DNA of 63,917 bases, the filler included, from Reclinomonas americana ATCC 50394 (Eukaryota): the NCBI GenBank assembly GCA_048213135.1. It is 5 parts of one record of this genome, joined end to end, with 100 filler letters (N's around TTAATTAATTAA, not from the genome) between each part and the next. Parts side by side here need not be neighbours in the genome. Positions count along the whole stretch, not along the records: positions 1 to 18,995 come from PS015551.1; positions 19,096 to 38,151 come from PS015551.1; positions 38,252 to 43,986 come from PS015551.1; positions 44,087 to 53,338 come from PS015551.1; positions 53,439 to 63,917 come from PS015551.1. One strand, 5' to 3'. The notes beneath the pieces are model-generated. The model searched no databases, had not been told where the DNA came from, and saw nothing but the letters and a program-made list of their open reading frames with translations. Below, one piece after another: positions 332 through 63,917 of the stretch; the first letter of the stretch is position 1, and every line of letters starts with the position of its first letter. Both the position numbers and the translations under genes were made by a program.

Positions 332-3300
332 ATGGCGACTGCGCCTCCACCCGCCGACTCTGTGGGCCGCCTCGTCTCCGACGTACAACGCTCCCTGCAT
401 CGCATCCGTCAGGTGTGACACTCGCACACACATATACACACACACGCGTTGTGCCTGTAGACACACACAATACTCACAAGAGATAATGTCCGTTATGTAG
501 GCTCTGGCGCAGGAGGATCCACGCGTGGCCGCGCATGTGCAGGGTCTCATTGCCAGTGCAGAGACGGAGCTGAAGCTCAAGGTCTCACTCCTTTCACCAC
601 AGTGTGTCTCTCCCTCAGTGCTCATTGTTAATTGCGTGCAGGCCGATGAGGTGATTCATGCGAGTCTGCATGGTGCGCCGACGAGCACCACTGGCTTCCT
701 CAGTGCGACTGGTGAGTGAGTGAGTTGTGTGAGTCATTGCGCTCACTGGCGACTGATGATAGCTGGTAGCTCCGCCTTCGTTCCAAGCGGACTCGAGGCG
801 CAAGGCGTTTGAGGCCGGAGCGGCACGAGCGACCGCCAAGGAACGCATGATGCGGGAGAGGAGAGAGAAGGTGCTGCGCAGAGGAAGAACAGAACGGACT
901 CGAGAGCTGTGAACCGGACATGCCTCCTCACTCTCACCTGTTTGCGTAGGTTCTCGCCGCTCCCGATGTGTACGCTGGCAAGGCACGCACGCTGCTGCAG
1001 GACGAGTTTGGCATGCCAACACAGCGCTTCAATCGTCTGGATCGCACCGCTGGTCGTCGCACCAGCGGTCATTTGCACAGAGACAAGGTGCACGGACCGG
1101 GATTCGTGTTGCCGAAGCAGAATCGCAACGACCCGCTGGCTCCACTGCCTCCGATTTCACCAGAGGAACTCAACAAGGTGTGTGTGTGTGTGTGCAACAC
1201 CGTCAGTCGGAAGAGAGGAGTTGTGAGCTGAAACACGCTGCTGTGTGGTTCCAGGGCCTGCTCAACATGATCCAGAAGGGCATCATTCCCGCCCATGTGG
1301 ACCTGACGCCCGCCATGGGCCAGAGCAGCTTCCCGCTGCACTACGAGCCGTCGCGCTTCTACCACCCGGACGAGTATCACATGCGGAGAGAGGTGGCTTC
1401 GGTGGCCGGATTCAACGCGCAAAGCAATGTGAAGCTGGATCAGGAGGCGCTGCGTGCGCGTGTCGAGGTGCGCACTCGCCACGTCGTTGTTCTGGAGTGC
1501 TGGTGGGTGCGATCACTGACGACGGCGAATGCAGATGACCGAGGAGGCCTACGCCCGGCAAAATGATGCCACTTACCTCGTGCCACAGCCGATTCAGGCA
1601 CCGCCGCCCCCACCGCAGCAACAGCCGACACAGCCGCCGGTTTGTCAGCATGGAACCTCGTGTGCATCATCCCCGCCGATTGTCTCACTCGCTTCTGTGC
1701 AGCCGGTCGACGCAGTCCAACGCACCTACGAGCAACTGCTGGATGAATTCTCGCTCCATCACTTTGTCATTCGCAAGGGCCAGGCGTTGCGCGAATCACC
1801 CGAATTCTTCTCGTTCCAGCGCACTTTCCAGCGTGACTGGGGCAACATTTGCTCAATCATTGGCGAGCTGGAACGGCTGCTCACCGAGCTGTCCAGTTGC
1901 GCACGCGCGATCGTTTCCGCGACCGCGCCCCGCATGCCTTGTCTCATCATCTCCCTCGTGTGTGCGAATCAGTTCCACTTGCGTACATTGATGGTAAGCA
2001 GGTGGCGCGTCTCGCCGAGTCCATGCTGGATTTGCCGACAGTTGCCGAGCTGCTCTCGTGCATTGTGAATCGCGACAAGGTTTGTGTGCAAGCTGTGGAT
2101 GGGGATTCTTGCTTTGTCGTTCATTCCCCTGTTCACTTTTGCTCGCTGCGGAAGGTGTTCTTGCCTCTGCATGCCACAAGCCAGTAGAAGTCTCACTCTC
2201 ATTCTTTGTGTTCTCTCTCTCCTTCTTCAAGCAATTTCCTCTCCTTGTCCATTCTGTTTATCTTACTTTCGAATCACATACTTCGTTCTCTCTTCTTCAT
2301 GTCGCCCCTCGTTAGCTCCCCCTCCCTTTTCCTCCCCTTCCCCTTCTATCCCCTCCCTTCTCCTCCCTTCTCCTCCCTTCCCCTTCTATCCCCTCCTCCT
2401 TTCTTCCCCTCGTCTCACCTCCCTCCCTCCCCCCACACAGATCGAACCCTACGTGTACAAACCCGGCGCACGCTTCCGCGGCGAGTCGCGTCGAGAGCTG
2501 GCGGCCACCAAAATCCAGGCTGTATTCCGCGGCCACATAATTCGTCGCGGTTTCGCTGTGCTGCGCGCCGCCGTGTACGCCAGCAAGATCATTCAGCGAT
2601 TCTGGCGGCTGGTCAAACAGAAGCAGCAGACGATTGCCCGTGTGCATGTTTCGTCTTGCTACGCCACCATCCCCGTGGTTTTCCTTTGCGCTCACACAGA
2701 TTTCTCATTCTTGTCATCAACCAGGATATCTGGGATACCGAGTTCACTGCGTGGCAGCGCTTGCAGACGCAGTTCCTGAAGTCGTGGCGCGATGTGAAGA
2801 GTGGGCGACGGTGCGTTCTCAGCTTTCTCACGAGACTGTTTCCATTTCGTGCCTCACCCATTTTGTGCAGTGTGGAGTTGCATGTGCCGTCGTTGAGTAT
2901 CGACCTGCAGCAGCGCCAGAACCTCGGCGAGTTTGTCGGCTGTCTCCAGAACGCACAACTCGGCCGGTGTGTGGTCCACTCGTCACACACCGTCCCGTTC
3001 ATTTTGCCTCAACCTCTCCGTGCCTCACAGAATCACATGGACCGACGATCAGACGGATGTGCTGTTTGTCTCTTCGTTCCCGCTGGACGACGAGTGCTTG
3101 CAGTATTACCAGAAGATTCTCATGGTGCGGTCCACCGTTGCTGCCGCGTTGCAGTGGTCGTGTGCTCAGCTCATGCGCGATGTACACACAGGTCAAGGGC
3201 GGTTATGCGCAATCGCGCCGACCGCTGGAGTCTGCCATGTTTACCGTGTACCCCGACGCACACAAGTCTTTCCCCCCGTTCACCTCCCTCGACAAGCAAA

Positions 3301-4993
3301 TTATGCTTTCTCGTCGCACCGTCGACCGCATCCGCAACATGACAGCCGGTCGGCAAGCGTACCTGGTGCCGGGCTCTGTTGGCATCGACACGATCCGCCT
3401 GGCAGCGGTGAGTGGCCTTGGTACTCTCCGTGCCGACGATCTGCTTGTCTTATCCCCTCTATCCCAGAAACTGGAATTGCCGATCCTCGGCCCGATGCCC
3501 GACGTGGCCGCCGTGTACGGCTCCAAGTCGGGCGCCAAGCGCATTTTTGCGGCTGCCGATGTGCTGATCCCCACTGGTGAGTCTCCTTACAATGCGTGCA
3601 TTTGATGTGCGGCAACTTACCTCTTGGTGCGTGGGACAGGCGTGGCCGATCTGTACGACGAGGAGACCTTTGTGGAGCGCCTCGTGGGCCTGTTGATTGA
3701 GTTCCCCCGTGTGCAGCGGTGGGTGTTCAAGCTGGACAACGAGTTTGACAGCCGCGGTCTGGCGTATCTCGGTGAGTGCGCACTGCTTCCTTCGTGTTAG
3801 TTCTCCAATCTCTCACCGTGCGTCGCAGATGTTGGCCGCCTCGGTAACTTGGATCACCTTCGCGATGTGTACACTTCCATGGACACGGACGAGGAGCTGC
3901 GCAACCGCACGTATCAGACGCTGGTGCAAATGGTTGGCGAGTCGCTGCCGACCATGGTCACGATTGTGACGCGCCGTGCGTACAAGTCGTGGAAGGACTT
4001 TGCGGCGGCGATGAACGACTCGGGTGCTGTCATTGAGGCGTACCCCGCCAAGCCACTCGGTTCACCATCGGTTGGCATGCTGGTGGAGCCAGATGGCACT
4101 GTGCGCATCCATTCGGTACTTCTGCAAGTCCCCGATCCCGAGTGCCCCTTCCGTGTGCCTGCCAGCTTGATGGGCAACGGCGAGTGGCCGGTGCCGTTTT
4201 CGGCACTCAAGCAGGCTTCGCTGTCGATTGCGCAGCGCTGCTTCGAGAAGGGACTGATTGGTTACATTTCCGTCGACTTTGTGGCCTTTTCTGATCTCGT
4301 TGCGTCACATGGCCACCACCACGATTCGGCCTGTTTCCACAAGGCAACTCACTTACTCTCGCCACAGTCGGAGGTGCGTTTGTGGGCTGTGGATTTGGAC
4401 ATTGGCCTGTCGTCGCGTCATGTGTGCTTCCACGTGGTGCGGACGATGACCAAGTTGCGTTGCATTGCGTCGTATTTCTTGCGTATGTCTGTATGCTTAC
4501 CTTGTCACTGCAGTGCCACGCTTGATCTGGCCACCGGCGCCCTGATTGGCCCCGGCGGCTCGTTCACGTACCTCGACCTCGGCATGATGTTCCACCCGTA
4601 CTTGAGCAGCATTCCGCACGCGCAGTTTTTCCAGTTGTGCCGCGAGAATCGCTTCGTGTTCGACACGGAAGAGGGCACGGGTCCCATTTTCCACTTGGTC
4701 AACACACTGCTCAGGGGCTGGATTGGCATCTCGTTGCGTGCACAACCCCCCTGCATGTTTGTGTGGGAACTCGTTGAGCTCATTTTCGCATTGCATACAG
4801 TTGTGTCGGCAAGTCACTGAAGCAAGTGAGCTTGCAAGCCGCCGACCTGGTAGACTTTTTGGATGTGGAACTCGCAGGTGTGACGGGCGAGCGGAAACTC
4901 GCTGCCACGAGCACCAACGTTCCTGTCATACGGCGCATCGCCTTTGCACTGGTGGAACAAGTGGTGCCGCTGAGTGCGCCACCAGCTCCATGA
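332..4993 (+). CDS. IQCH: IQ domain-containing protein H homolog (multi-exon)
   Basis: Spliced reading starts MATAPPPADSVGRLVSDVQRSLHRIRQ. It includes RTYEQLLDEFSLHHFVIRKG..ESPEF, the IQ motif AATKIQAVFRGHIIRR, SKSGAKRIFAAADV, WVFKLDNEFDSRGLAY and IGYISVDFVAF..LWAVDLDIGLS, all typical of IQCH. Introns are GT-AG; stop TGA at 4991-4993. Confidence 0.85.
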
Positions 4994-5234: not shown

Positions 5235-8200
5235 CTAATATGTGTACGAGTATTTCACCTGCGATGCGTGGCGGTGAGCGACAGAAATGCAGACCAGCGG
5301 CAATGAGGAGACGCTCACCTTGTACGGCCCACTGGCCTGCATACCGAGATGCTGGATGAGGGTGAACGCGCCAGGGAGGAGAGTGCGCGTGACCACGATT
5401 TCAGAGAGGTCACCGCCAACCACCACGTTGCTCGAGGCCTGAAAGTCCATGCAAATGTCCACCACGCGCCCTCCAACTACCTCCGCACCATAACTAAACG
5501 TGTGTCCACGCTTCGATTGGTACGTGTACAGCAGGATGCGCTGCGAGGCCTGCTGCACTCCGCGTTGGTGAATGAGAGCGGACCACGCTTGAACCATTAG
5601 CTGCGGCGCACAATAGTCAAATCACTGCCGTGCACACGCAATGACATGTCGACAACGCACAGTCGGTTCTCGCGGCATGAGTGTGCACACAAATGGATCT
5701 GTGCTGTGCACAGACACCATGTAGCATCGACTGTGGACCGAGCTGAACGAGTAGTCGTAGCCGAGGCGCGACAGGCACCACAAGACAACCGCCTGCACGT
5801 CACGCAGCTGGTGAGCAAGAGTGGCAGCAGAGGAACATGAACGGAGGGGACTGACGCACTTCGCCCTGCTGCTCCAAGATGTTGCTGATGAACTGAATGA
5901 GTCCGCGCTCCGACAATCCGCGCCGAGTGCTGCAACACCGCGGCAGTATGTGCTCCGCAAACTGCTGCTGCGAGAGAGGCTCGCCAATCATGCGCATGTA
6001 CAGGCGCGAGAACTCGGCGTAATCCAACACCTCGTCCATGTCCATGTCGTACGTGCGAAACACATCCTGCGACGCAAACTTGTGAGCGACGCAGCAGAAT
6101 GTGTGCCGCTGCTGCTGTTGCAGTCACGCAACTCGAAGTGTCGATACGAGTTCGTGGCGCAGTGTCCGATCGTCGTGCTTCAGTGTCGGTGGCACATCGA
6201 GACACGCATCGGGTATCTGTGAGCGCAACATGCATCCGGTGGTTCTGCGAGAAACAGTTCGTAAGTGAGTCGTGACTGCGGCGAGGCCGCGGTAATAATA
6301 GCAGGCACGCAACATGGGCACCACAGTGTACACGCCAGGCTCAAGGTCGCACTCCAGCTGCCACTGCCGCTCCCTGGCGGTACCGTTCTCCGCCACCACG
6401 GTCAGCGATCCGTCGGCTTCTCGTCGGAAAACCACCAGGCCACAATCGATATATGGCCGATGCACATCCACCCAAAACTCCCTCTCGTCCTCCTGATGGA
6501 TCGTCAGGTAGACTCGCGACCGCTGCAGGATCTGTGTATCGGCACGGGAAAGTGCGAATGAGTTCCCTATCTCCAACCCCAACTTTGTGATGCACGCAGT
6601 CACCTCGAGAGTGTACGACGAGCACGACACCGAGTGGTCGAGCTCGCGCTGAAACACACCCTTTAACCTGCTCTCCTGCCACTCTGGTCGCACCCTACTC
6701 GATGAATCAAATCATCAGCGCGGTGCGGACAGACAACAATCCGCAATACGTTATTAGTGACACGCAACATGCAAAACGACATTTGAGAGAATTCGACGAA
6801 GAAGTCCTCAAAGCTCATGTAGAACTCTCCATTCTCCTCCTCCACCGGCGCCAGCACCGAGCGCAATTCTGGCGTCCACAGCGGGGACGCTGATGACCAA
6901 TCGCCGTTCCTGCAAGAGAATCACAACAAATGAGGAGACAAACACCACGCGCCTCGGTCAGGTGCAAAGTGTCACAAACCACCTGTCACGACACACAATG
7001 AGTTTCGTGTCTCTGACTCGACAAGAACGCACAAGGGAGATGCGTAACTCAAAGCGACCCCACGGATTGCGCAGTCGGAGGAGACGATGACCCTCAATGT
7101 CGAACGCTGCCTGAATCGTGTACGAGTGGCCGGGGACAAGTCCACTGCCCGAGCGCGGCGTGTCGCCTTCTTCGGTAAACGTGTCCACCCCTGCCCGACA
7201 AGCAACAAGAGTGAGCCTGCATGCAAGTATTCGTGTTTCTGCGCCATCAACCACCTTTGGTCTCCGCACAACATACATCGCCGTCGCACATGCGCGTGAG
7301 AATGTGCTGCCAGAGGGCGCCACTGGCCATCATCTCTTGCGTGTGCGGATGCTCGAGCACAATGTGCTCGAACGGTGCGCCAGTGAGATCAATCAGTGCG
7401 TCACGCGAGCAACCTCGTCGTAGCTGCCATCATGCATCATCATCGATCAGACATGCGGACGACAGGGGAAAACGGAATCGGCGGGTCACTCGCGCACACC
7501 TGGTTGTAATTGCCGTGCAGTTTGGCATACGCCTTTTCCAGCAAACTTACCCACAACTGATCGTCCTGGCAGCGTGAGAAGATGAAACCACCACCTGCGC
7601 AGTCGAGCAATGAGGCGGAAAGGCCAAGTGGCGATGTGAAGAGACGAATGTAGCGTCCCGACTCACCAACGCTGCACGGAAAGTAATCGTCCACTGTCAC
7701 CGTTCGCCACTGTCCGTGTTTGGCGATTCGCATCTGCACACGCACACACACACAGATGCTCCAGTGAGCAGAACTGCAGGCGAGTGGGAGGTTGACACGC
7801 CGTCGCAAAGAGAGACCTTGTACACGCCGAGTGGATCGTACTCGTCGGTGACAAAGAGGCGTCTGATACGCTCTGGCTTTTCCGCCAGTGCGGCCACGGC
7901 GCTGAGGAACCAGCTGAATGCGATATGGTGGAAGATGGTCAGCTCCTTGAATCAACAGATGCCTGTGCAACAAAGAATGTACGTCACCAGTCGGCGAGCT
8001 TGCCCTGCATAATGGTCGACGGCTCCATGCTGGCGCCCAGAATCACCGGCTCACTGTCGCCCTTGCCCCGCGCTCGCATAATGTCCAGTGGTCTCTTCCA
8101 CTCGATAGATGAAATCTGCGTGCGTGCGACTCGACCAATGAGCAACGAGTCACATGGAAAAAAGGATGCCGGCGACCCACGCAACGCTCTTGTCACGCTC

Positions 8201-9240
8201 CGTGTCCGACTCAAAGATTGAAGTCATGAGCGGAGGAAAGTCAAGATCCACAAAACTCAGCGGCTGTGCACGCTCGCGGGCCATATCGCTGCATGCGGCC
8301 TCCTGCAGGTACGAGCGGATGCGCTCTGCCAGCATGATGTCACTCGGCAAGTCGCGCAGCAGCTGTCGCGCAGTGTCAGCGGTGAAGCAGCGCGTAGAAG
8401 GGAGGAAGAAGAGGTGTGTACCTGCTCGCCCAGCGACACATGCTCGAGGACGCGCGCCGCCGATTCAAGTGCCATCACCTCGGACTCGCGTCGTGACAGC
8501 TGTCGCGTTTGCACTCTGCACGACGAGGTGTGAGAGCGCTGTCGAGAGAGAGAGAGAGAGTGATCCAATAACAACCAGCCACACCTGTAGTGCACATGAA
8601 AGTACATGGGCTGCAGCGGATCCACACGATCCACACGCGTCACAAACTTGGTCTCCCCAGCCATCACCGACGCATTCACCACCGTGCTGTCACTGCGCAC
8701 CAGCTCTCGTCAACACACCACCACCGTCACTCGCGCCACAAAGAGAGATCCACAAACGCAACGAGCTGGCACTCTGTACGCGCACATTACTGCAGTCCTT
8801 GAACGACAGCTCAATATCCAGCGGCTGCCCCGACTCATTCTCCACATGATACGCAAAGTAGGCCGGCTGTGTCGCGCAAATCAGTCACCAATCTTCCGCA
8901 CTCTGCAACAGCAGAGTTCCCTCGTTACCTGTTCCGTGCCCACCATGAGGCTCAGCTCGCCCAACGGCTTCACCAGCACCTGCCGGATCCACACTCCCTC
9001 GCCCGCACAGATGCTCTCCACAGTGCTCGACTCCTCTTGCGCCTCCTCCTTTGCCTCTTGCGCCACTCCCTCTATCTCACCAGCGCGCTTCTTCGCACGC
9101 TGAAGTCGCCGACGAAGTATCTGATCAACATCATCGTCGTGGCCACGACTGCTCGACGCCTAATCATCATCGTCGTCACATGTCAAACTCGGGACATTCT
9201 TTGGTGATCTTCTTTCTCGCACACGCGCAACTTGTGACAT
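5235..9240 (-). CDS. Calpain-family cysteine protease (CysPc + domain III + EF-hand + C-terminal domain)
   Basis: Catalytic motifs QGKLAD-C-WFLSAVAALAE (Cys codon split by an intron), GLVPGHSYT and LRLRNPWG, plus LWVSLLEKAYAKLHGNY, GEFYMSFEDF, LEPGVYTVVP and EF-hand FRTYDMDMDEVLDYAEF. The start exon (ATG TCA CAA, 9240-9232) is inferred. Confidence 0.85.
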
Positions 9241-10650: not shown

Positions 10651-11955
10651 TTACTCTTCGCGCGAGAACACAACCTTGAGGATGGAATGCAGCAGCACTG
10701 GTGCCTCCTCCACATTCAGGTACATGTCGCTCTTGAGGTATTCGGGAACGAGGACCGTGCTTGGCAGGCCAGGTGGACCGGCGTAGATGCGCAGCGGGTT
10801 GTATTCCAGGTCGCCCTCCATGGTCTCGTTCAGCTCGAACACCATTTCTGGGAGCTTAAGTGAGCACAGCTGGCAGGATATTTCGCTTCTGCCACACGCA
10901 CGCACCGCGCTTGGTCTGCGTGCTCTGGCACGTGCACACGACGCGCCCGTCGTCATTAATGTCGACCGTGCACCCGGAGAACATGGTCATAAAGCTGAGC
11001 AGCCTTTGCTCGTGTCCACGAGCGCCCGACGATGACGACGACGACGATGATGATGATCCCACCGACGCACGTGACATGCGCTCGGACGGCATGTTGGCGT
11101 GCGACTTCATAATCTCCACTGTGCACGTGATAGAGCCGTACATGAGATCGTGTGGCATGCGAAAGAGACTGCGATTCGCACGCAACTCTCCGACTGCAGC
11201 TCGAGAATGGTGTTCTTCAGCTCAATGTTCTCGCGCTCCGCATCGCGGATGCGTGCCTGCAGCGAATCCGCCTCGCGAGTGCTCTGCAGCGTTCGTGCCA
11301 GCTCCGCACGCATGCTCTCAATCAGCTTGGTCGAAGCTGCGAAGAAAGAAAATCAACAAAGGCACTGATGTCGAAGGGGGCAGGGGAGGCAAGACGCACC
11401 TGCTTCCAGCTTCTCGTACTTTTGACGCAGAGAGGCGGCCACACGCTCCGGCTCCGTCTGTCGCAGCACCATCAGCTCCTCGAGTCGCGAGCGCAGTGCC
11501 GAGTCGGGCACATTGGAGGCAGCAGCGGATTCCTGTCAACAACAACGCCGCACTCATGAGCACACGCAAGAGCACTCGTCTCTCCCCATCTCTCTCTCTC
11601 TCTCTCTCTCGCTCTGAAACACACACGCATAGTAGCAGTCAGACGTGCCTTTAGACCCTCGCCGCTTGTCCGTCGCTTGCCAGGCTTCTTGACGGGCTTG
11701 GCCGCAGCCGCCTTGTGCTCAGCCAGCACGGGCTTCTGTCGAACATGGGGCGAGTGTGTGAGGACGAGAAGAGGAGCTGAGTGAGTGAGTGAGTGTGCGT
11801 GTTCGCTCAACTTCATTCTCGGCACCGAGCGACGAGCGCCTGCGCGTCGACTGCCGCTTGAGTGGAGGCTCTGCGGGCGACTTGTTTCCCGCATCCTCCT
11901 CCTCTTCCTCGCTCATAATCTCCGCCACAGCGGTGCGCTTTCGACTGCGAGCCAT
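10651..11955 (-). CDS. Monopolin subunit Csm1/Pcs1 (TITAN9-like): coiled coil + C-terminal RWD-like domain
   Basis: LEELMVLRQTEPERVAASLRQKYE coiled coil, then LLSFMTMFSGCTVDINDDGRVVCTC..VFEL..DLEYNPL..VPEYLKSDMYLNVEEAPVLLHSILKVV, which resembles the Csm1 C-terminal pattern (Y.P...LP.YL...I.F....P). Confidence 0.65.
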
Positions 11956-13740: not shown

Positions 13741-15429
13741 CTATTCTTCACCCATCACCACCGCCCGGAGCACCTCCATGCATCCGACCGCCGCCAGTCG
13801 CTGGTATTCCTCCTCTGAGATGGCGAACATGGAGCCGAGGAAGGCCATGGCGTTGCAGCCGAAACCAAAGGCCTCTTCGCGCTCACGAGGAATGACGAGA
13901 AGGTACTCTTTCGTCAGCAGAATATTGTACGACGGTGCGCCGTGATCAAAGTCCACTTCGATCGGCTCGTCTTCCTCGTCACGCGATTCGCCAGAGTCTG
14001 CGGGGCGTCTGCACATCAAAAAACAGTTGCAAGGAAACGGCTTGCTTGGCAGACACAAGACGCAACGGCGAGCGGTGGGGTACACAGCGAGGCGTTCGAC
14101 TCGCTTGTGGAAGCGCTTACCGCCCTCCTCTAGCCCCAACACATGCAACTCGGCCTTCAGCAGCTTGTGCAGCGCACCTGCATAGCGCATCGTCACCGCG
14201 GCATACTCTTCGCTGTTCGTCTCGCACGCCAGCACCTCGGCAGAGTAGGAGCCGATGAGGTCGGTGACATCCAACAGCAGGTGGCGGAACTTGAGCGCCG
14301 GGCAGTGCAACACGCGCGAGTGCGGCGGTCGCCACCGCGGCGACGCCACCAACCCATCCACCCCATCCGAATCGCCATCCGAATCCGAACCGGACCCGGA
14401 CGCACTGCCCGCTCCACGCGCCACACGATGCTGCCGCACAGCCTCGCAGATGAACACATGCAACGGGAACGTCGAGTGATCCAGCGGAACCATTTGCAAG
14501 TGTCGATGCGGTTGACTATGTGGCATTGGAAAGATTCATCGGTTCGCATATTTTCTGCATGCATCATCTCGACATCAAAAACAACAAGCGTACGAACCTC
14601 GGTCCCGCCTCCACGCCCTTGTTGTAAAAGATGAGCACATCGTTCGGCACGCCCTCATCGTACGCATATCGTGCAAGCGCGCTGGCAACAAAAACTTTCT
14701 TCAGCAAAAAAAAACAAAAGGGAATATGCAATCGCCTGCGAGTGACAGGGCACCTGATAGACGCCGCCGTGTCATTGACCGACAGTGGAGCACACTGCAA
14801 CTCAAACTGTCGCGTAGTGATCAGCACGTGATAGGGCACCACATTGAACTTGTTCAGCACAAGCGTGTGGTCCGGGAACGCCTCCTGCGCACACAAGTCA
14901 ACAGAGAGACAACCACTGAGAGAGAGGGAGGGAGAGAGAGGCACTCAACTTCCTCCACTGTGAGCTCGGGGTCTGGAGGGAGGAACGGATCATACACTGC
15001 GCGTCGCTCTTCCACGAGAAGCCCATCGGAGGCGGGAGAACTTTGTGTGTGTGTGTGTCAGACAGAGAGAGTGAGAGAGTGAGAGTAGACACTCACACAC
15101 AATGCACTCTCACCCGTGTCGCGTGACATCGTGCTGGCGATCCAAGTTGCTTGTCTTGCGTGGTCGCTGCGTGGCCACAGACACATTCCACTGTGCGCAA
15201 CAGTGTGCGTGTGTGTGAGAGAGTGTGTGTCTGTGTCTCTGTGTGTGTCTCTGCTCACCTCCACGCCATCTTGCGACAAGACGCGACGCTCACACGGAAG
15301 AGTGCACAGTGCACCAGTGCTCAACGCATGCTCTGCAACCTCACGCACTTGACACGCACAAAGGCATCAGTGAGAACATACTGTCTGAGTGAGTGAGCGT
15401 GAGTGAGCGCACGCACCTCGCTTCCACAT
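13741..15429 (-). CDS. ATP adenylyltransferase / Ap4A phosphorylase (Apa1/Apa2 family)
   Basis: MWKRVREVAEHALSTGAL, YDPFLPPDPEL, HTLVLNKFNVVPYHVLITTRQFELQ, FYNKGVEAGPSQPHRHLQ (HxHxQ), SYNILLTKEYLLVIPR and NAMAFLGSM. Confidence 0.9.
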
Positions 15430-15490: not shown

Positions 15491-15840
15491 ATGGCGACTG
15501 CATCACCTCCACCTCCGCTGTTTGTGACTGCGGGAGTGGTGTGGGGCTCGCCCACTACCCTGCACTCACAGTTTGATGTGCTCTTTGTTGGCCGCGCAGA
15601 GTTCATTGTTGCGTTTCTCACACACACACACTCTCTCTCTCTTTCTTGCATGCACTTATGCTCTCTCTCTCTCTGTGTGCAGGCATATGGTCGTGGTCGC
15701 TCTGTGCTCGTCTTCTGTGATGGCTTTCATCGGTGGACGCTGGAGGGACACGATGAACCAGTCACGTGTGTGGCCTGGTGCGGATCAGGAAAGGTGCGGA
15801 ACACACACACATACACACACACACATACACACACACACAT

Positions 15841-52200: not shown

Positions 52201-54248
52201 GCACTGCACCAATGTCCGTCTGTGATGGAGGTGATGGGCGGCCTGGCACAGTTCCTCACCCGTCAGTGTGTTACGCTTTGTGGCACCGATGATCGGCTGC
52301 TACAGTGGCGATACCACTTTCGCCTTCCGTTTGTGTTGGACCAGCTGCGGCGCGTCAGCGTTCCGGCAGTCGTGAGCTCGCTGACCGACGACGATCAACG
52401 AGCATGGGTGGAGGTCACCTTGCACTGTGTGCACACAATGGCGAATGGCGCGGGCATGTGGCCTTTGGCGCCGGCATGTCTCACCAAGTACATTCAATCG
52501 CGCGCGTCAGCGGCGCTGTCAATTCCGGCTCCTGTGCAGGAACTGCTTGTGAAACCAGTGTGGATATGCGGCTTGCTTGACCGCCTCAAGGAGAAGGAGG
52601 TGGCTCTCTGGCCATTGGTGACGCAGATCATGCGGACTCGCGATGCTCGACTGGGTTGCGTGAGCAATCTCCGTTTTGTGATCCTTTCATGTCTTCTCAC
52701 TCGCTCACTCTGCAGTGCGAGGTGACGTTCGGCAGCGCATCAGCGAATTGGTTCGCATGCAATACCAGGAACTGTGTTGCGAATGCGAGAGCCGTTCTGA
52801 CGCACTTGCGGCGGCCATGCACATCAGCAGTCATTCCATCTGCCAGCTTGCCGAGCTCCTTGTGGTTTCCAAGTACTTGTTCTCCGCTGCGCACAATCGC
52901 GAGTGGACGCAACTGATGCTGCGCACGGTGCCGCTCAATTCGCCCTCCAAAGCGAGAGCTGGCGCGGATCAGCGATGCAGTCTTGGGTTCGCCGCGCTGC
53001 ATGCCGCTCTGTCGCACAAGGATTCGATGCCGGCGTCTGATGCGGAGGCCGCCGACCAGTACCTGTTTTCTCTGGTCGGCGCACTGGTGGAGGCGCTTTC
53101 GTACACCGGGCCTGGTATGCGGGGAGGGAGAGGGAGAGAGGGAGAGGGGGAGGGAGAGGGAGAGGGAGAGGGAAGGGAGAGAGGGAGAGGGAGAGGGAGT
53201 GGGAGAGGGAGAGGGAAGGGAGAGAGGGAGAGGGAGAGGGATATAATGAGAAGGAGGGGACGAGAGAATTGAAAACGGAGAGGGAAAAGAGTGCAGGAGA
53301 CACGAACATGATACACCACTGTCAAAGGTGATAGAACGNNNNNNNNNNNNNNNNNNNNNNNNNNNNNNNNNNNNNNNNNNNNTTAATTAATTAANNNNNN
53401 NNNNNNNNNNNNNNNNNNNNNNNNNNNNNNNNNNNNNNAAAGACGGGCGTAGGCGAAAGAGAGCAAAACGTCACCAGCGTAGGTGACTGTATTCTCGATC
53501 TCTTGTTTTGCGTACTGAGTTGCGTATTCTTCGTGCAACCAGGCACGGCGCTCATTGATCTCGGCCTTGTTATCGACTACGTGGGCACACCGATGCTGGA
53601 TGTTGTGCGTGCTATGAACGAAGCAGCGAGGCTTTCTCGTCGAGGTATGTGTGCGCTCGCACGCGTGTGTGTCACGGTGTTTCACCGTTTTTTTCCACAG
53701 TGCGGTCCCGTATGTGGCTCTTGCTGCGATGTATTCTCGATCCGGCAGCCGGTCGACGGCGCCAAGTAGACGAGTACCTGAACATGAGAGTGCCCAACTC
53801 GCGGCCATTGTGCGATCACACCGAGCAGATGCATGTCTCGGAGGTGCTTGGTCGTGCCTGTGCCGATGAGCTGGAGGAAGAGGAGGCGCATCCTGGTGGC
53901 CTCGACGTGGAGGTGCTGAGTGCGATTCTGTTTCTTCATGCGCCGTCGCATGCCGATCGCGAGGAGGCTGATTTGCAGCTTGCACTGCAGCAATCGATGC
54001 TGTCATTCGACGGGTATGAGGATCAAGATGACTTGGGTCGTGTGGCCTATGGATTTGTTGACGATGTGATGATGGAGGAGGAGGAGGAGGAAGAGGAGGA
54101 GATGGAGGTTGAGTTTGAGTTTAGTGATGATGACGACGGTGGTTCAGAAGGGGAGAGAGAAGTGGAGGAGGTGGAGGTGGAGGAGGATGAGGAGGAGGAG
54201 TTCATCGCTGATAGGTCACCGGTTGCATCAGCGGAGTCAGTTCGATAG
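49209..54248 (+). CDS. F-box + helical-repeat + UIM-like + acidic tail protein, paralog A (spans a spacer inside an intron)
   Basis: Spliced F-box LPVEIIGV|ISSFLDIDDDFPRLWRTSQGF; repeated L.AS.P..V..L...QRAW motif; EEADLQLALQQSML; poly-E tail. Confidence 0.7.
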
Positions 54249-54578: not shown

Positions 54579-57500
54579 ATGGGCAATCTGTTCGCACGAG
54601 TCGATGACTTTGACGACTATGTCAACTGCTGCGCTCAGTGTACCTGGGCTCGCCTTCCCACTGACTTACACGGGGAGGTACGCGTTGCTTGTGTCTTCTC
54701 TGCGGTTCTTGAGTGCTCACCACCACCTGCATGACCGCTGCGACTTCGATTTCGAACTTGTATCGACGCTGTTTGGACGCAGATTTTCTCGTTTCTCGAC
54801 CTGGAGGAGGACTTTCCGCGACTGTGGCGTGTATCTCAATACTTCTACGCCGTCTTGCTGATGAAGCTGCACACTGCGCGCTTGTCTGTGGAGCGCTTGC
54901 GGAACCCGTCGAGACTGGTCGGAAGTCTGCTCCGTTGCTTCACCGGCATCCGAGAGTTGCAGATCCATGTCGGTGCTTCTGCAAATATGCGTACATTGCC
55001 GATGGAGATACGCGGGCTGGCTACTGCGTCCCGCAACGCAGCCGTTTCACCCCGTCGTCTCAAACTGGTGGTGCAAGTGGATGCGTCATTGCTGGGACCA
55101 ACTGCTCCACATGCATCGCTGCTCTTGCGTGCATTGGAGCAGCGTGATGGCCAGTCCTTGGTGGACATTCGACTCCAGTGGCCAGATGCCCGGGACCGCC
55201 AGCAGACGACTGCCCATGCCCACATCTGCTCGCTGTTGACCGAGATTCTGTCGCATGCGCCGCGATCGTCGGAGAGTTGCGTCCTTCACTGCATGTCTCT
55301 CAGAGGATCATCAATAATCGCAACTTCCCTCTCACGAGGATGCCAACACAGCAAGCGGCGCAAATGCTTCTCTGGAGCTCTCCGTGTTCGGTCCGGAATC
55401 TGGATCGGGATCGGCAAGTACAATTGCTGAAAAAGACGAAGAAAGAAACGCAGCCATGCATCGTCTGCGGACGCTAGTCATGCACCAACTGCTCCATCAC
55501 TTTGACTTGCATCCGGAGCGCGAGGCAGTTGTTCTGCACGCATTGCAGAGTGGTGCGTTATCATTTTCTACACCAGATAGTACTACGCGTTGCTTCTTAC
55601 ATTTGTTGGCGACCGCACAGTGTACGACCGCCGTGGCAGAGTCATCGATGAGACGCTGATGCGCGTGCTGTGCGACCTCGACTGCGTCAGCATCCGGACA
55701 CATCGCCGCGATATTGAGAGTGATGTCGAACTGCCGGACACGACGGCCGTTGCACCGTCAACTCTCGAACAGCTGCTCAAGCAGGCATGCACTCGTGGCG
55801 CCGGTTTTGACGGGGCGGCGTCCAACCAATCTCTCCAAATACTGATCCAAGCGCTCAAGTGTTGCGTACGCTGCACAGCGTGTAATTACACTTATCAGTC
55901 GCGTTCTTACATGTTGTCAATGCAATCAATCATCAGGGCTCCCCAGCATCGCATCGACGATGCTATCGCTTCCAGTGGGTCTGGAACTTGTGCACGGAGC
56001 CATCAACGCCGTCTGCAACACCGACACACGTCAGCTGACGATGGCGGATCAGCAGCGCGTCGATGAGTTTGTCCGTCGATGGCTGCGCGCCGTCCACCGT
56101 GAGAGTTGCTCACTCCGTGAGCTGACCCATGCGGTGTCCACGTTGACGATGGCGTGTGCAAGGAGCCTCCGTGCATCTGGTGATCGCCGTCTGCCGACGC
56201 TGCTGAGCCTGCTTCTCGACGAACTCGGCGGAGCTCCAGCGCAAGCACGCAACCTTCCGAGCCCCGAGGCCCAGTCTGCGTGGATCGACGGCATCATGCA
56301 CATTATCCTGGACACGCACAGCACGACGTCGACAATATGGAAGTCAACAGCGAAATCAGCATTGATCCATTTCTGCAGAGTTCCCGTCCCACAAGCGGCA
56401 CTGCAGGCTCACAGCAACTTGATCCGGGCGAGCTGCAACGGACAAGAGCTTGAGCTCCCCGTGCTCCGACAACTACACTTGCTGGTGTCGTGTTGCGTAC
56501 AAGCGCTGCGACAATGTGTTTCATAGTCATCGCACTTCTCATCTCGCATGCAGGCGCTCCAAGCTTGTTGGTGCCCATGTGCATTACAGCACAGGCCCAA
56601 GACAGCAGCCTCATTCCGCTCATACTTGCGCGTGGCCTGGCGCGCGAGCAGCACGCCTTCAGTGACGAGTGTGCCAGTGTTGCACAAGACTTGGCGTGCA
56701 TCACGATAGATGCCCTAACCGACGCTGGAGGCAGGCTGGCTGTGGAGAACTCAGACGTCCTGACGCAACTTCTTCGAGGAGTCGTGGAATTCCTTGTCGA
56801 GCAGTGCCATGCGCAGCATCATATCCGCCCGCCCTTGCGCGAATGCCTTTTGCGTGCCAGCGATCCAGCCATTGTCAGTGCGCTGGAGATCGACCGTCAG
56901 CTGGCATGGGTCACCATCATGCAGCGGTGCATTGTTGACACGGAAAGTTTGGCACCGAGAGCAGCGGAGCGACTTACCGAGTACATTCATCGCAATCCCC
57001 AGCCGTCTGGGCCGTTGCTGGATGCGCTCTACGAGTCCTCCTGGATTGGCAGCCTGTTCCTCGGCGAGCTGGTATGTCTGCAAAGTCTGGAGTGCCAGCG
57101 GCGGCGCTTGCACTTGTTGACGGCGCTGGTGAGGGCGCACGAATATCGACTGAGTTTCGTCAGCCTCTCCCCTGTCACACTGACATTGCAACGCGGTGTC
57201 GACGCAACCGTTCGGATGCTGTATCCACTGGCTTCGAATTCCGGCAGCGACGCCATCTGCACGCACCGTGAGCTCGTCGAGCTGCTGTTGGCGTCACAGT
57301 ATGTGTTTGCGGATACTTCCAAGTGGGCGTCGCTGCTCTTGAAGACTGTCGAGGAGAACTGTTCGAGCTTCCAATGCAGTCTTGCGTTCACCGCTCTCCA
57401 TGCTGCGCTGGCGAGCTACGACCGGGACGACTACGATGAGGACTATGTTGTACGGCTTACGTACGGACTGCAGACTGCCTGTGGTGCGTGTGAATCAGCG

Positions 57501-58868: not shown

Positions 58869-60190
58869 TCAACTGCCCGCCCTTCTGCGCAACTTGAGCG
58901 TCTCCTCCGACACCACGAGGCAGATACCGGTGCCGACCGACAATCGGAACATTTTGATTGACAGGCCGCTGAATAGTGCTCGATATCCGTCCTCTTTGAT
59001 GGTGTTTCTGAATGCCTGTGCACAAGATGCACGTCATTATCACCAACATCATCACACTAACTGCTTTTTTCTTGAGACACACAATGGAACGCACCTTGCT
59101 GAAGCTGCTGTACTGCTCCTTACCCGACTGCATGCGACTCTTGATGACATCGAATGGACTGCCCAGAATCGCCGCGGGTATGCCGGCCGCCACACCGCTC
59201 ACCAGCTTGTAGAATCCCTTCAGATTCTGCAGAAATCGAAGACACAACTCAGTGCACAATGTCGTGCGGGGCCAGCCGTGCGGAGCACGTAACATCACCG
59301 GTGCGCGACCACCTGCTCTTCAGATACTCGTATGTGGCAAACACCGTGGCGCCGTAGACAGTCNNNNNNNNNNNNNNNNNNNNNNNNNNNNNNNNNNNNN
59401 NNNNNNNNNNNNNNNNNNNNNNNNNNNNNNNNNNNNNNNNNNNNNNNNNNNNNNNNNNNNNNNNNNNNNNNNNNNNNNNNNNNNNNNNNNNNNNNNNNNN
59501 NNNNNNNNNNNNNNNNNNNNNNNNNNNNNNNNNNNNNNNNNNNNNNNNNNNNNNNNNNNNNNNNNNNNNNNNNNNNNNNNNNNNNNNNNNNNNNNNNNNN
59601 NNNNNNNNNNNNNNNNNNNNNNNNNNNNNNNNNNNNNNNNNNNNNNNNNNNNNNNNNNNNNNNNNNNNNNNNNNNNNNNNNNNNNNNNNNNNNNNNNNNN
59701 NNNNNNNNNNNNNNNNNNNNNNNNNNNNNNNNNNNNNNNNNNNNNNNNNNNNNNNNNNNNNNNNNNNNNNNNNNNNNNNNNNNNNNNNNNNNNNNNNNNN
59801 NNNNNNNNNNNNNNNNNNNNNNNNNNNNNNNNNNNNNNNNNNNNNNNNNNNNNNNNNNNNNNNNNNNNNNNNNNNNNNNNNNNNNNNNNNNNNNNNNNNN
59901 NNNNNNNNNNNNNNNNNNNNNNNNNNNNNNNNNNNNNNNNNNNNNNNNNNNNNNNNNNNNNNNNNNNNNNNNNNNNNNNNNNNNNNNNNNNNNNNNNNNN
60001 NNNNNNNNNNNNNNNNNNNNNNNNNNNNNNNNNNNNNNNNNNNNNNNNNNNNNNNNNNNNNNNNNNNNNNNNNNNNNNNNNNNNNNNNNNNNNNNNNNNN
60101 NNNNNNNNNNNNNNNNNNNNNNNNNNNNNNNNNNNNNNNNNNNNNNNNNNNNNNNNNNNNNNNNNNNNNNNNNNNNNNNNNNNNNNNNNN

Positions 60191-60630: not shown

Positions 60631-62008
60631 ATGGATTTCGACCGCGACGCTCTCTTCGGTGCCTTCAATGAGCTGCTCGCTGTTGCGTGGTCTCATTTTT
60701 GCTGCGCAGCGGAAGTCACGCACGCGGAATTGAAGAGATGAGCGACATCGTCTGACATGTCTCTTCCTTCTCTCTCTTTGTGCACGTGCGTGTGTGTTTG
60801 TTGGTCGGCAGCACTCTGACTGGAGCGACAATGGCATGAAGGAAGGGTGAGCGCATGAGTGTGAGAGAGAAAAAGCACGATTTTCATTCTGCACTCACTT
60901 ACACACATGTACAGTGTGCACCTCCAAGAGCTGAGTGTGGCCGGCACCAGCGCCAAGGCTGTGCGCGGTGAGAGCTCTCACTCACTCTCTGTGCCTTGTC
61001 ATTTGTTGTCTGATTGATCAAAAAATTCTTCCGGTTTATGTAAAGGCGACTATGCGATGCCGCACTCGATCGAAGCCTTCCTGGCGATCCTGTCGAACAT
61101 GGACACGCGGAAGCAGTGGGACGAGCAGTTTATGGGCGGCGAGATCCTGGAGGACATTGATGCCGACACGCAGGTCGTGCATCTGAAGTTCGACTCGAAC
61201 TCAATGCTCGTCAGCAATCGCGACATGGTCGTGTGTCGCGCGGTGATTCGTGAGCCCGGAGTCACGTATGTGGTGGCCAAGTCGGTGGTGCATCCGGGCA
61301 AGCCGGAGGGTGAGGGATGATTCCGCGTGAGTGTGCGTGACGACAGGGGCACTCAATTGCGTTGCAGTCAACAAGTTTGTGCGCGCCAACTGCCTGTTCA
61401 CTGGCTACCGCCTCGTGGAGAAGGAGGTGGAGGGTGCTGCGGGCATCGAGGTGACGTACATTACGCAGGTGGACCTCATGGTGAGTTGTGCATGGGAGAG
61501 GGAGATCAGAAGTAGTTGTTTGGGGAGAATTGTGGGGGCGGATTTGTGTCTCTGCGAGCGATGGTGCGAGAGCGACCTGTCGGGGAGTCTCTTTGTGTTT
61601 GTGTGTCTCTCGCTGCTCGTGTTTCTCAGCGAGTCTGAGTGTGATGGCGCGAGGGTGGTAAGTCGAGGAGTCACTTGGTGTCTCGGTGCACGTTTTTCTG
61701 TGTTTCCACGGGGTGTATGAGTGAGTGTGTTTCTGTCTTTATCCTGGTGGTTGTCTTTCTTCTCGTGCACTTTGTACGGCACGTGACTATGGATAAACAC
61801 GATCAGCTTTCTCCTTCCTCTCCCTCCCTCCCTCTCTCCCTCCCTCCCTCCCTCCCTCCGTCCCTTCCTTCCTCACACTCACTCACCTCCTTTTCCTCTC
61901 CAGGGAAGCGTCCCGGCGTTCATCACCAACGCGGTGGCGACGAAGCAGCCGATGACCCTGTACAAGATCCGTACAATCCTCGACCGCAACGAGGGAGGCA
62001 GCCGGTAA
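60631..62008 (+). CDS. START lipid-binding domain protein
   Basis: MDFDRDALFGAFNELLA|HSDWSDNGMKEGVHL..AKAVRG..RKQWDEQF..VSNRDMVV..AKSVVHP..FVRA..VTYITQVDLMGSVPAFITNAVA. Confidence 0.88.
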
Positions 62009-62236: not shown

Positions 62237-63917
62237 TTAGCGAACTGGATCCTTTTGCTTGACCGTCCGCTTGGCAATGTCTGGTCCGTGAACAAACAGC
62301 AGGGCCTCCTTCAACGCGTTGACCCACTTTTCGCGCACATACGCAGACGGAGCCTCAAAGTCCAGCGTGCGGTTGGCGCCCACCAACGAGAAGTACAGGT
62401 GCGCGTATTTCTCTGCACAGAGAGAGGGAGAATGAGCCACACCAAATAAAAAACACTGCAGCGAGGGAACTGCATGCTACGCTCCGCAACTCTTGCCGTT
62501 GCGCGCCAACACCTTGGTCGTGAGACCCTCGGTTACCATGTTGAAATCACGAAGCGGCACAGATCGCCTGAGAGCACGCGAAATCATTCTGCGAACAGTG
62601 AGAATCTATCACGGGGGAAAAGACCGAATTGACCCCGCAACGTTCCCTCCTCGTCGTTCTCGCCCATCCACGAAATCACGGTAATGTTTCCGTCGCACAA
62701 GACGTAGCGCGGGTGCGGCCAGCCCGATCGGCCGTGCTTGACCAGCATTGAACCGCGTCGCAGGAATGCCTTCCAGTCCTCCGAGATGGGTGGCGGCGGG
62801 CTGTTGACTGCAGGGGGAGAATGTTGAGCACATCAGAAGCGAAGTTTCGCTCGCATACGTGCAACAAACCTGCCATGGCACGATCGGCGGCCTGCTTGAA
62901 TGGATCTGCGTGTCATGCCCGTGAGATGACGAGTCGGCACTCGATACAGAGCACCAAAATGAACACGCAACGAGGAGCCTCAGCAGCTGCAGGCTGTGGT
63001 CGGCTGTGTCCGGCCTCCTCCTCCTCCTCGTCGGAGCTCAAATCAAACGGCGCAGCACCGTGTCCCTGCTGACGAGCAGCCTGCTGGCCGTGCCTTGACG
63101 GAGGAATGGGGAAGTCGTCGTCGTCAAACGCCGCAGCCGCAGTGGTCGTGGTAGTGGTGGTTGCCGCACCACCAGCAGCGGCGCCCTTGGCCGGCTTGCT
63201 GGGAACCATGAAATCGTCGTCGAAAATGGAGCCACCGACAGCGGGCGCGGGTGTGGGATGAGCCGCAGGAGGGGCGCGTTTGCCACCCGGCAGCGGGAAG
63301 TCATCATCAAAGAGTGAGTTCGCCGATGGTGGAGCCGCGGCTGACTGAGGTGTCGGACGAGGCGGCGGCACGGCGGCGTGGTGCTTGTCGTCCTCGTCGT
63401 CATCGTCGCCCAGCAGGCCACGAATCTGCAACAGAGAGGTGGTGGTGAGCGCACTCTACTTTCTCTCTGTCTCTCTCTCTCGCTCCTGCACCGTGCAGAC
63501 GCACCCGATCAGAGGCCTTGGCTGCGGGACCGGCCTTTCCTCGGCCAGCAGCGGCGGCCACAGCGGCAGGTGTGGCGACGACAGTCGGAACTGCGTGTGA
63601 CAGGCTGTGAGAACTATGCGCCTGAACGAGAATTGCACGCACCAAGAACGATACCTGGCGCAGCTGCCACTGGCGGCGGAGCCATCAGCCCCGGTCGCGT
63701 CACATCATTGTCAGCCTGCATGGCACAAATTGTGTGTGAGTCCACAACCGACTATTTTTTTTTTTGCAATAGCAGCATGCAGCCGTACCTCATCAAATGG
63801 TGTGTGGTGCGCCACTGGAGCCACCATTGTCCTCGGCGGCGACACGGTGCGCTTCGGAGCGGCGGCAGGAGCTGTCGCAAATCATCGAAAAATGTGTGAA
63901 CAGAGGTACAAGCAGAG
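62237..63917 (-). CDS. Pro/acidic low-complexity protein with C-terminal PLC/Mcp5-type PH domain (5' end outside window)
   Basis: FLRRGSMLVKHGRSGWPHPRYV..ISW..VTEGLTTKVL..YFSLVGANRTLDFEAPSAYVREKWVNALK, with repeated (L/I/A)FDDD(D)F motifs upstream. Confidence 0.75.

Follow-up and report, generated by a model that had tools for sequence, protein, structure and literature searches.

Genes in a 63,917 bp stretch of the genome of Reclinomonas americana ATCC 50394 (the window, by which we mean the whole of the DNA that was analysed) carry two abundant classes of 5' splice site, or donor: the usual GT(G/A)NGT and, beside it, a second class of the form GTT(G/T/A)CGT, the existence of which is confirmed here. 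A first-pass annotation of this DNA had placed GTTGCG or GTTTCG at 32 donor coordinates, and all 32 match the sequence (24 GTTGCG, 8 GTTTCG); counted by eye, 23 of the 32 have T at intron position +7 and one has G as the last base of the exon. The class goes beyond that list: it has further sites, GTTACG as a third variant and GTTGAG as a minor form, and the exon-end G is lost. Of several possible explanations, we favour as the probable one, with real room for doubt, another mainstream class of donor, N|GUU(G/U/A)CGU (the bar marks the cut), that is recognised in a shifted register and is most simply read by a second U1 small nuclear RNA (snRNA) variant.

Introns were called with a purpose-written gene finder, which works by dynamic programming on codon log-odds with an acceptor matrix that is learned and a prior on intron length, and which was trained iteratively (59 kb in total) from a seed of 1095 codons in Pfam-matched parts of open reading frames (ORFs). 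All of its introns are GT..AG by construction. In a donor-blind mode, where any GT is equally good as a donor, 142 introns were called, and the commonest donor hexamer was GTTGCG, with 14 donors and an 8.7-fold enrichment over its share of the 7984 GT sites. Corresponding values were 10 donors and 6.4-fold for GTGCGT, 8 and 5.6-fold for GTGAGT, 8 and 2.2-fold for GTGTGT, 6 and 9.4-fold for GTTTCG, and 3 and 15-fold for GTTACG. Taken together, GTT[GTAC]CG makes up 23 of the 142 donors vs 159 of the 7984 GT sites (p=1.4e-14). Four frequent decoy hexamers that were seeded as donors in training decayed to 0–3 uses, and self-reinforcement is therefore not the cause of the enrichment. It had been proposed that the class could be refuted by a model in which donor positions are independent; such a model predicts 2.4 GTT[GT]CG donors in the blind set, where 20 were seen (5.0 and 45, respectively, in the donor-aware set described below), so that the class survives this comparison. 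C at +5 is found in 25 of 39 blind-set donors with T at +3 vs 19 of the remaining 103. The motif is also biased in strand, with 79 sense and 31 antisense copies of GTT[GTA]CG inside donor-blind gene spans (p=5e-6), vs 85 sense and 66 antisense for the control motif GT[GA][CA]GT.

In donor-aware mode the gene finder called 179 introns, with GTTGCG (34), GTGCGT (21), GTGAGT (15) and GTTTCG (11) as donor hexamers. This run recovers 26 of the 32 previously listed donors and adds 26 GTT-class donors to them. It misses +2648, +23628, +24066, +60682, -6768 and -9231 (signs denote strands), among which +23628 is supported by homology, +24066 partly by homology, and -6768 by the end of a Pfam domain. 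The claim that the class is used across most genes holds, since 15 of the 18 predicted gene models contain it; in the five successive parts of the window it accounts for 17 of 68, 17 of 57, 5 of 14, 5 of 15 and 8 of 25 predicted introns. Its share of predicted introns is about 16–29%, and by our estimate it makes up between about a quarter and a third of the introns. Of the 16 homology-supported introns in the APE and IQCH genes (see below), 10 begin with GTTKCG, a share that is biased upward by the choice of these two genes from the earlier list. At four predicted GTGGTT donors (33012 and 41125 on the plus strand, 7254 and 6982 on the minus strand), GTTGAGT or GTTTGTG occurs 3 bases downstream, and this downstream GTT site may be the true donor.

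Comparison with homologues and paralogues shows that GTT-class introns are cut before GUU. In the APE/ExoIII-type endonuclease gene, exons were placed by hand and their coordinates fixed by script. The spliced model comprises 171 residues, is open in a single frame, and aligns to P0001, a 392-residue SAP+ExoIII protein of another organism, with a score of 385 and 82 of 168 residues identical. Four small indels are present in this alignment (at model residues 18–20, 27, 70–71 and 93), and the five internal GTTKCG junctions (at residues 5.3, 61.7, 76.7, 111.7 and 157.0) all lie in gap-free blocks. When every GTTGCG donor was moved to the GC located 3 nt downstream, the score fell to 350 and the alignment became fragmented. 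The donors of this gene are, in order, GTTTCG, GTGTGT, GTTGGG, GTTGCG, GTTGCG, GTTGCG, GTGCGG, GTTTCG and GTTTCG, the last of which has homology on its 5' side only, with the next exon lost in a gap. An 11-nt micro-exon (23697–23707, plus strand) lies between the GTTGCG and GTGCGG introns, and without it the match to P0001 would not be gap-free; the gene finder overlooked it, and also set an acceptor at 24000 instead of 24023.

In the gene for an IQCH-like ATP-grasp protein, tblastn alignments show homologue gaps exactly over three GTGAGT introns (3408–3467, 3577–3639 and 3772–3828) and exactly over two GTTGCG introns (4299–4367 and 4454–4513). Spliced models reach scores of 633–687 against four homologues. 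The junction at 4733 lies within gap-free blocks in all four of them, and that at 1896 is gap-free in two of two (P0125 and P0131). The junction at 4299 is beside a length-variable segment and is fixed only within a few residues; the domain match (PF24923) ends at residue 155 of the 156 residues of the exon before this donor. The alternative GC donors gave a lower score in six of six IQCH comparisons, by 12–19 units. The earlier exclusion of a GC donor 3 nt downstream is thus upheld, since GC models score lower in all seven homologue comparisons, and for GTTTCG and GTTACG a GC donor is impossible anyway. An IQCH relative with 57% identity, P0185, has an intron at the position of the 4299 intron that is read through in its protein; judged from the translated sequence, the donor of that intron would be GTNTGY and its end CAG. 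The intron is therefore shared with the organism of P0185, and its donor class has changed.

Core Pfam coordinates of the calpain gene are contiguous exon by exon (25–57, 59–92, 95–116, 118–146, 207–244 and 248–296); a further predicted core exon (7256–7423) has no Pfam match, and domain positions 147–206 are uncovered. The domain stops near nt 6771, next to the listed donor at 6768. Two genes encode cadherin-like repeats (32308–34868 on the plus strand and 36551–38080 on the minus strand), with one repeat per exon, phase 1 introns and a split codon, and can thus serve as paralogue controls for splice sites within the window. Paralogous exon boundaries in the gene at 32.3–34.9 kb use GTGCGT (33340) or GTTGCG (33693 and 34515) with identical phase and split codon, which therefore places the cut before GTT. 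A cut one base later, giving introns that start with UU, was rejected because the acceptor AG is not followed by G (A28 C11 G23 T36%), so that the acceptors would cease to end in AG, and because the junction codon in APE would turn from Ile to Ser. Several introns (3408–3467, 4299–4367, 4454–4513, 13998–14066 and 23197–23268) are multiples of three without in-frame stops, and are therefore read through by prokaryote-style gene callers and by tblastn.

The two classes were compared in the donor-aware set, taking donors with G at +5 as ordinary (n=85) and GTTNCG (n=49) plus 3 GTTGAG as the GTT class. G at -1 is found in 8% of the GTT class (4/49) vs 77% of ordinary donors (65/85), and in the blind set in 3/23 vs 47/61 (p=1e-7). 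Upstream exon ends had been described as diverse; what this amounts to is that G is strongly depleted at -1. Base composition (in %) at GTT-class -1 (A38 C34 T18 G8) is like that at ordinary -2 (A35 C27 T23 G14). Equally, the variable base at GTT-class +4 (G69 T22 A8) mirrors ordinary +3 (G74 T16 A7), and GTT-class +7 (T75) mirrors ordinary +6 (T65), in agreement with the proposal of a +1-shifted donor. GTT-class positions +3 to +7 match ordinary +2 to +6, with the first G replacing the exon-end G. When N-A|G-U-U-G-C-G-U is right-aligned with N-A-G|G-U-G-C-G-U, a single position differs, the ordinary +1 G. At ordinary +4 the composition is C44 T28 A23, while GTT-class +5 is C by definition; the demand for C before the conserved G is apparent from 49 GTTNCG vs 3 GTTNAG, and this near-absolute C suggests a G in the pairing partner. 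The extra base is nearly always U (49 donors, vs A 1, C 0 and G 2); in the blind set there are 23 GTTNCG donors vs 3, 2 and 3 with A, C and G in place of the second T.

In length, branch motif and acceptor the introns of the two classes are alike. A comparison of length and branch point between the classes, suggested in the first-pass annotation, gave medians of 70 nt (ordinary) and 69 nt (GTT class) and the same branch-like motif, CTCAC/CTCAT, mostly 15–25 nt before AG; YTNAY is present in 69 of the 85 ordinary introns and in 45 of the 52 of the GTT class, and the acceptor C-R-C-A-G is common to both. Phases 0/1/2 number 43/30/12 for ordinary and 16/21/15 for GTT-class introns. Pairing between a 5' GCG and a 3' CGC at the intron ends was considered and rejected, as donor +4 and acceptor -4 show no covariation. 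GTT-class introns are genuine major, U2-type GT-AG introns with ordinary 3' signals: they run from GT to AG, leave an open homologous frame upon removal in the spliced APE and IQCH models, and mostly have YTNAY before the acceptor, although they lack G at +5, rarely have G at -1 (8–13%), and are predicted to pair with canonical U1 no better than background sites. U12 introns have highly conserved, long donor and branch motifs. A resemblance to them exists in that two donor classes share one genome, with the second, on the U12 side, read by a separate snRNA. They differ, however, as GTT(G/T/A)CGT is not the U12 motif and the branch and acceptor signals are those of ordinary introns, and the Rfam search of the window gave no U11 or U12 match.

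Pairing was computed with a canonical U1 5' end (AUACUUACCUG, as given in Tan et al. 2016). Ordinary donors have a median predicted duplex energy of -6.2 kcal/mol, compared with -1.4 kcal/mol for GTT-class donors and -2.2 kcal/mol for GT sites taken at random. Canonical U1 therefore does not account for the sharp conservation of the GTT class in any of the registers that the folding model permits. Among 211 U1 5' ends with up to two substitutions, the variants that favour ordinary donors are either canonical-like or have G5 and/or C6 (with an advantage of about 4 kcal/mol over background), the only ones favouring the GTT class are those with G5 plus A8 or G8 (-8.5 vs -3.3 kcal/mol background), and none of the scanned variants serves both classes. 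An Rfam search of the window gave nothing at gathering scores and no snRNA at E<=1. At this cut-off there was one weak microRNA-type match (9426–9486); otherwise, only the (GA)n/(TC)n microsatellite hairpins at 24890–25240 appeared, with many sub-threshold matches to microRNA families, which we read as noise.

In the process that we favour, the recognition sequence would lie one base further from the cut than in the ordinary (A)G|GU(G/U/A)(C/U/A)GU. The first G of the intron would stand where the exon-end G usually is, the second U, which is obligatory, would fall at the position of the usual +1 G, and UNCGU would then repeat the ordinary +2 to +6. Early recognition would take place in this displaced register, and its simplest reader would be a second variant of U1 that has G as its position 5 and, as its position 8, A (or G) instead of C. 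Once the donor has been handed over, the step at U6 and the active site would have to accommodate an additional U lying between the cut and the helix with U6. Loss of the exon-end G, the restriction of the extra base to U, and the mirrored downstream preferences would arise because the register is shifted. Composition supports the reading as a shifted donor, while the shift relative to the cut is something that we infer. Tentatively, and we consider this possible rather than probable, the two systems may be co-equal, with an ordinary U1 for (A)G|GUNNGU and a second U1 (predicted 5' end ...ACGUAAC...) reading N|GUUNCGU, one base out of register. If so, the catalytic core of the spliceosome would routinely cut one nucleotide upstream of the position dictated by the helices with U1 and U6, and the recognition register would be naturally uncoupled from the cleavage position in about a third of introns.

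The main rival is a tolerant system with a single U1, in which the usual U1 and U6 would read the same donors and a single U would bulge out at +2/+3, so that no second snRNA is required. Such a register is known experimentally in human cells, according to the available part of Tan et al. 2016 (PMC4856993), and the lineages Thecamonas and Mamiellales, which prefer C at +4, keep a standard U1, as stated in the portion available of Roy and Bowser (10.1101/2022.06.08.495308). The extra base is moreover a U, which is easiest to bulge beside another U. However, a bulge predicts that the exon-end G is kept, yet it is lost (8–13% vs 77%), and a shift of the whole helix fits this loss and the U-only base better than a simple bulge at +2/+3. 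Canonical U1, with bulges allowed, also pairs no better with the class than with random GT sites (-1.4 vs -2.2 kcal/mol), and C is demanded (49 GTTNCG vs 3 GTTNAG) though A would pair better with canonical U1. We regard this explanation as unlikely. Less likely still is a historical legacy, namely a burst of intron gain from a mobile, introner-like element with an end that read GTTGCGT, of which only the splice signals would have outlasted later divergence. The nearly even phases of the GTT class (16/21/15, vs the phase-0 excess of 43/30/12 in ordinary introns), the absence of an AG|G protosplice context and the very uniform lengths would all fit such an origin. Nevertheless, pairwise local scores against shuffled sequences give no similarity among the copies beyond the splice signals (median best score 21 vs 19 shuffled for 50 GTT-class introns, 22 vs 20 for ordinary ones), the variants G, T and A at +4 are interchangeable and mirror the ordinary class, and P0185 shares the position of the 4299 intron with another donor class. 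A burst would in any case account for the origin of these sites and not for their splicing.

It is very improbable that the class is an artefact of inference, with the true donors elsewhere (at GC 3 nt on, or at other GTs) or with a hexamer that is merely frequent in GC-rich DNA. GTTGCG is indeed common (91 copies, observed/expected 1.22 under a Markov model), three of the 32 previously listed sites (+2648, +60682 and -9231) are still candidates only, and all junctions were inferred from the sequence, by reading frame, GT/AG and homology alone, a point that also weighs against our own interpretation. This possibility is largely refuted by the enrichment among donor-blind calls, by the behaviour of the decoys and by the bias in strand, by the GC alternative, which is impossible at GTTTCG and GTTACG and otherwise lowers the alignment score in seven of seven comparisons, and by junctions that are gap-free against homologues and Pfam coordinates that are contiguous exon by exon. 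Several further observations count against a shifted second class as we describe it. The donor-aware run finds 12 of the 16 donors with homology support, its 179 donors include 42 odd hexamers that are probably errors, and some gene models are merged; its counts are partly self-reinforced, and the share of the class in the blind set is lower, at 16%. About 30 of the 79 sense-strand copies of the motif are not predicted as donors. One GTTTCGT, preceded by C, lies within a conserved APE exon (23551–23557, plus strand) and is apparently unused, and the motif alone is therefore insufficient for splicing. Duplex energies were computed with parameters for unmodified RNA and with a U1 sequence that was assumed, and the argument for a shift is one of composition alone. 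Finally, G at -1 is depleted to below background (8–13%), which pairing to U10 by itself does not explain.

Outside GU, the two most conserved donor positions are G at +5 and the exon-end G, and in model organisms donors without both are considered non-functional. A genome where at least a quarter of introns lack both Gs, yet have another, sharply conserved motif, would show that shifted recognition can be a mainstream mode, and the GTT class would be a natural system in which to examine how the cleavage site becomes fixed once U1 has handed over to U6. Parker and co-workers reportedly linked donor preferences, in 2023 (eLife), to U6-modifying and hand-over factors. The class also yields a concrete prediction on snRNA genes, and gene finders with position-independent donor models will mis-annotate many genes here.

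Shifted and other noncanonical registers, as well as lineage-specific donor evolution, are already known, and the GTT class would be a mainstream version of them. In humans, donors using U1 in a register shifted by +1 were described by Roca and Krainer (2009), as told in the available part of Tan et al. 2016 (PMC4856993), where the test oligonucleotide has an exon ending in ACA followed by GUCAAGUAUA. From that account, the human sites resemble the GTT class in being cut before a GU whose G pairs at the slot of the exon-end G, with the consensus one base inward. They are rare, however, noncanonical registers combined amounting to 2.1% of 201,541 sites in the same partial source, whereas the GTT class has about 16–29% of predicted introns and 10 of the 16 that are homology-supported. 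The motif here is GUU-N-CGU, with a U at +3 that is able to pair, and is known from sequence alone. The human +2/+3 bulge register (Roca et al. 2012, via the part available of PMC4856993; 68 sites predicted, 54 after curation, of 201,541) is similar in having an extra nucleotide beside GU and a consensus displaced by one, but the exon-end G is lost here and kept under the bulge model. In amoebae, according to the portion available of 10.1101/2022.06.08.495308, U1 has co-evolved with donors, its sequence being AACAAAC in Entamoeba and ACGUAC in Mastigamoeba balamuthi, where donors are GUGCGC. These atypical donors go with a changed U1 5' end, and G at U1 position 5, pairing with +4C, parallels the demand for C here; as described there, each has one consensus in normal register, while we find two classes of differing register in the same genes. 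The same source, as far as available, reports that Thecamonas trahens and Mamiellales (GYGCGY), which prefer +4C, have a standard U1, one consensus and normal register. Our ordinary class, with GTGCGT as its commonest form, is like theirs, and a GTT-shifted second class is not mentioned for them in that part of the source. A full-text search of the literature found no account of a GTT(G/T)CG donor class; figure logos and most subscription journals lie beyond a text search, and an earlier description in a genome paper is possible.

Table 1. GTT-class introns and candidate donors, preceded by the genes identified and the APE exons. Listed: among the 32 donor coordinates of the first-pass annotation; new: absent from that list. 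Finder: gene finder.
Feature	Donor	Position	Strand	Evidence and remarks
IQCH-like ATP-grasp protein gene		~1.2-5.0 kb	+	Pfam, long ORFs
Calpain gene		5.2-9.7 kb	-	Pfam, long ORFs
OB-fold protein gene, read as RPA2-like		~12-13 kb	-	Pfam, long ORFs
Ap4A phosphorylase gene		13.7-15.0 kb	-	Pfam, long ORFs
APE/ExoIII-type endonuclease gene		22.5-24.1 kb	+	Pfam, long ORFs
APE exons (9)		22972-22988, 23055-23092, 23148-23196, 23269-23350, 23416-23460, 23523-23627, 23697-23707, 23782-23906, 24024-24065	+	hand model
IQCH intron, 77 nt	GTTGCGC (-1 A)	1896..1972	+	motif, finder, gap-free vs P0125/P0131
IQCH candidate intron, listed	GTTTCGT	2648..2724	+	motif; 77-nt in-frame option; finder took GT 2653
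IQCH intron, 69 nt	GTTGCGT (-1 C)	4299..4367	+	finder; 22-23 residue homologue gap; PF24923 end
IQCH intron, 60 nt	GTTGCGT (-1 A)	4454..4513	+	finder; ~20-residue homologue gap
IQCH intron, 68 nt	GTTGCGT (-1 C)	4733..4800	+	finder; gap-free in 4/4 homologues
Calpain-gene intron, listed	GTTGCGT	6067..6132	-	motif, finder
Calpain-gene intron, new	GTTGCGT	6245..6313	-	finder
Calpain candidate intron, listed	GTTGCGT	6695..6768	-	motif; 74-nt option; PF00648 end ~6771; finder took 6749
Calpain intron, new	GTTACGC	6983..7048	-	finder; flanking exons match PF00648 207-244 and 248-296
Calpain intron, listed	GTTGCGT	8116..8185	-	motif, finder
Calpain intron, listed	GTTGCGT	8693..8762	-	motif, finder
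Candidate donor, listed	GTTGCG	9226..9231	-	motif; finder took GT 9238
Intron, listed	GTTGCGT	11119..11186	-	motif, finder
Intron, new	GTTGAGC (GTTGAG subtype)	11736..11811	-	finder
Ap4A-phosphorylase intron, in frame	GTTGCGT	13998..14066	-	motif, finder; intron spanned by PF09830 match in read-through ORF
Intron, gene called DMXL in first-pass annotation	GTTGCGT	15608..16049	+	motif, finder; 442 nt, acceptor uncertain
Intron, listed	GTTGCGC	16544..16610	+	motif, finder
Intron, new	GTTTCGT	17354..17423	+	finder
Intron, new	GTTGAGT	18677..18743	+	finder
Intron, new	GTTTCGT	18848..18910	+	finder
Intron, new	GTTGCGC	20617..20685	+	finder
Intron	GTTGCGG	22080..22156	+	motif, finder; sole listed site with G at -1
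APE-gene intron, listed	GTTGCGT	22903..22971	+	motif, finder
APE intron, 66 nt	GTTTCGG	22989..23054	+	motif, finder, hand model; gap-free vs P0001
APE intron, 65 nt	GTTGCGT	23351..23415	+	motif, finder, hand model, P0001 alignment
APE intron, 62 nt	GTTGCGT	23461..23522	+	motif, finder, hand model, P0001 alignment
APE intron, 69 nt, then 11-nt micro-exon	GTTGCGT	23628..23696	+	hand model, P0001; missed by finder
APE intron, 117 nt	GTTTCGT	23907..24023	+	hand model, P0001; finder acceptor 24000 wrong (gives stop)
APE donor	GTTTCG	24066..24071	+	motif; P0001 homology ends at donor; next exon lost in gap 24106-24740
Intron, listed	GTTTCGC	25506..25588	-	motif, finder
Intron, listed	GTTTCGT	25622..25683	-	motif, finder
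Intron, listed	GTTTCGT	29106..29181	-	motif, finder
Intron, listed	GTTTCGT	29372..29437	-	motif, finder
Intron, new	GTTTCGT	30845..30904	+	finder
Intron, new	GTTACGT	31228..31302	+	finder
Intron, new	GTTACGT	31706..31767	+	finder
Cadherin-like gene intron, new	GTTTCGT	32626..32693	+	finder
Intron between cadherin-like repeat exons, phase 1	GTTGCGA	33693..33770	+	motif, finder; paralogous boundary 33340
Intron between cadherin-like repeat exons, phase 1	GTTGCGT	34515..34578	+	motif, finder, paralogue comparison
Intron, new	GTTTCGA	39580..39643	+	finder
Intron, new	GTTGCGT	40318..40385	+	finder
Intron, new	GTTGCGT	40480..40548	+	finder
Intron, new	GTTGCGT	40965..41027	+	finder
Intron, new	GTTGAGT	42579..42646	+	finder
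Intron, new	GTTGCGT	45793..45874	+	finder
Intron, new	GTTGCGG	50599..50671	+	finder
Intron, new	GTTGCGT	51266..51351	+	finder
Intron, new	GTTGCGT	51925..52006	+	finder
Intron, new	GTTGCGT	52655..52715	+	finder
Predicted intron, new, 345 nt	GTTGCGT	55276..55620	+	finder; acceptor uncertain
Intron, new	GTTGCGT	55861..55975	+	finder
Intron, new	GTTGCGT	56492..56553	+	finder
Predicted intron, new, doubtful	GTTGCGT	57126..57208	-	finder; low-scoring antisense gene model
Intron, new	GTTACGT	59227..59293	-	finder
Candidate donor, listed	GTTGCG	60682..60687	+	motif; no acceptor passed simple filter; finder took GT 60690
Intron, listed	GTTGCGG	62413..62490	-	motif, finder
Intron, listed	GTTGCGG	62589..62641	-	motif, finder
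Intron, listed	GTTGCGT	62906..62971	-	motif, finder

The window has about 57% G+C, many (GA)n and (CA)n repeats, and assembly gaps. Its parts are joined by spacers of 44 N, TTAATTAATTAA and 44 N, which are identical at 18996–19095, 38152–38251, 43987–44086 and 53339–53438; the spacer is a six-frame stop linker, and neighbourhood across it is not biological. A Pfam search with long ORFs revealed eukaryotic genes split into numerous small exons, and NHL, REJ and cadherin-like repeat proteins are encoded in addition to the genes in Table 1. The closest relatives of the IQCH-like protein are environmental or transcriptome proteins with 54–58% identity, while named relatives, with 35–42% identity only, are from Naegleria fowleri, Heterolobosea sp. 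BB2, Cyanophora, Rhodelphis and Diacronema. A PDB search with the read-through ORF of the Ap4A phosphorylase gave no match, and in a search of metagenome contigs for related loci none of 480 pattern matches was confirmed by alignment.

A WD40 gene on the plus strand (25907–27034) is long and probably consists of a single exon. Its best listed relatives are metagenome proteins, and the named relatives listed are mostly bacterial, chiefly cyanobacterial, with about 28–53% identity. A neighbouring exon (21197–21754) carries a bacterial YdeI/OmdA domain, and both the WD40 gene and this exon are possible gene transfers.

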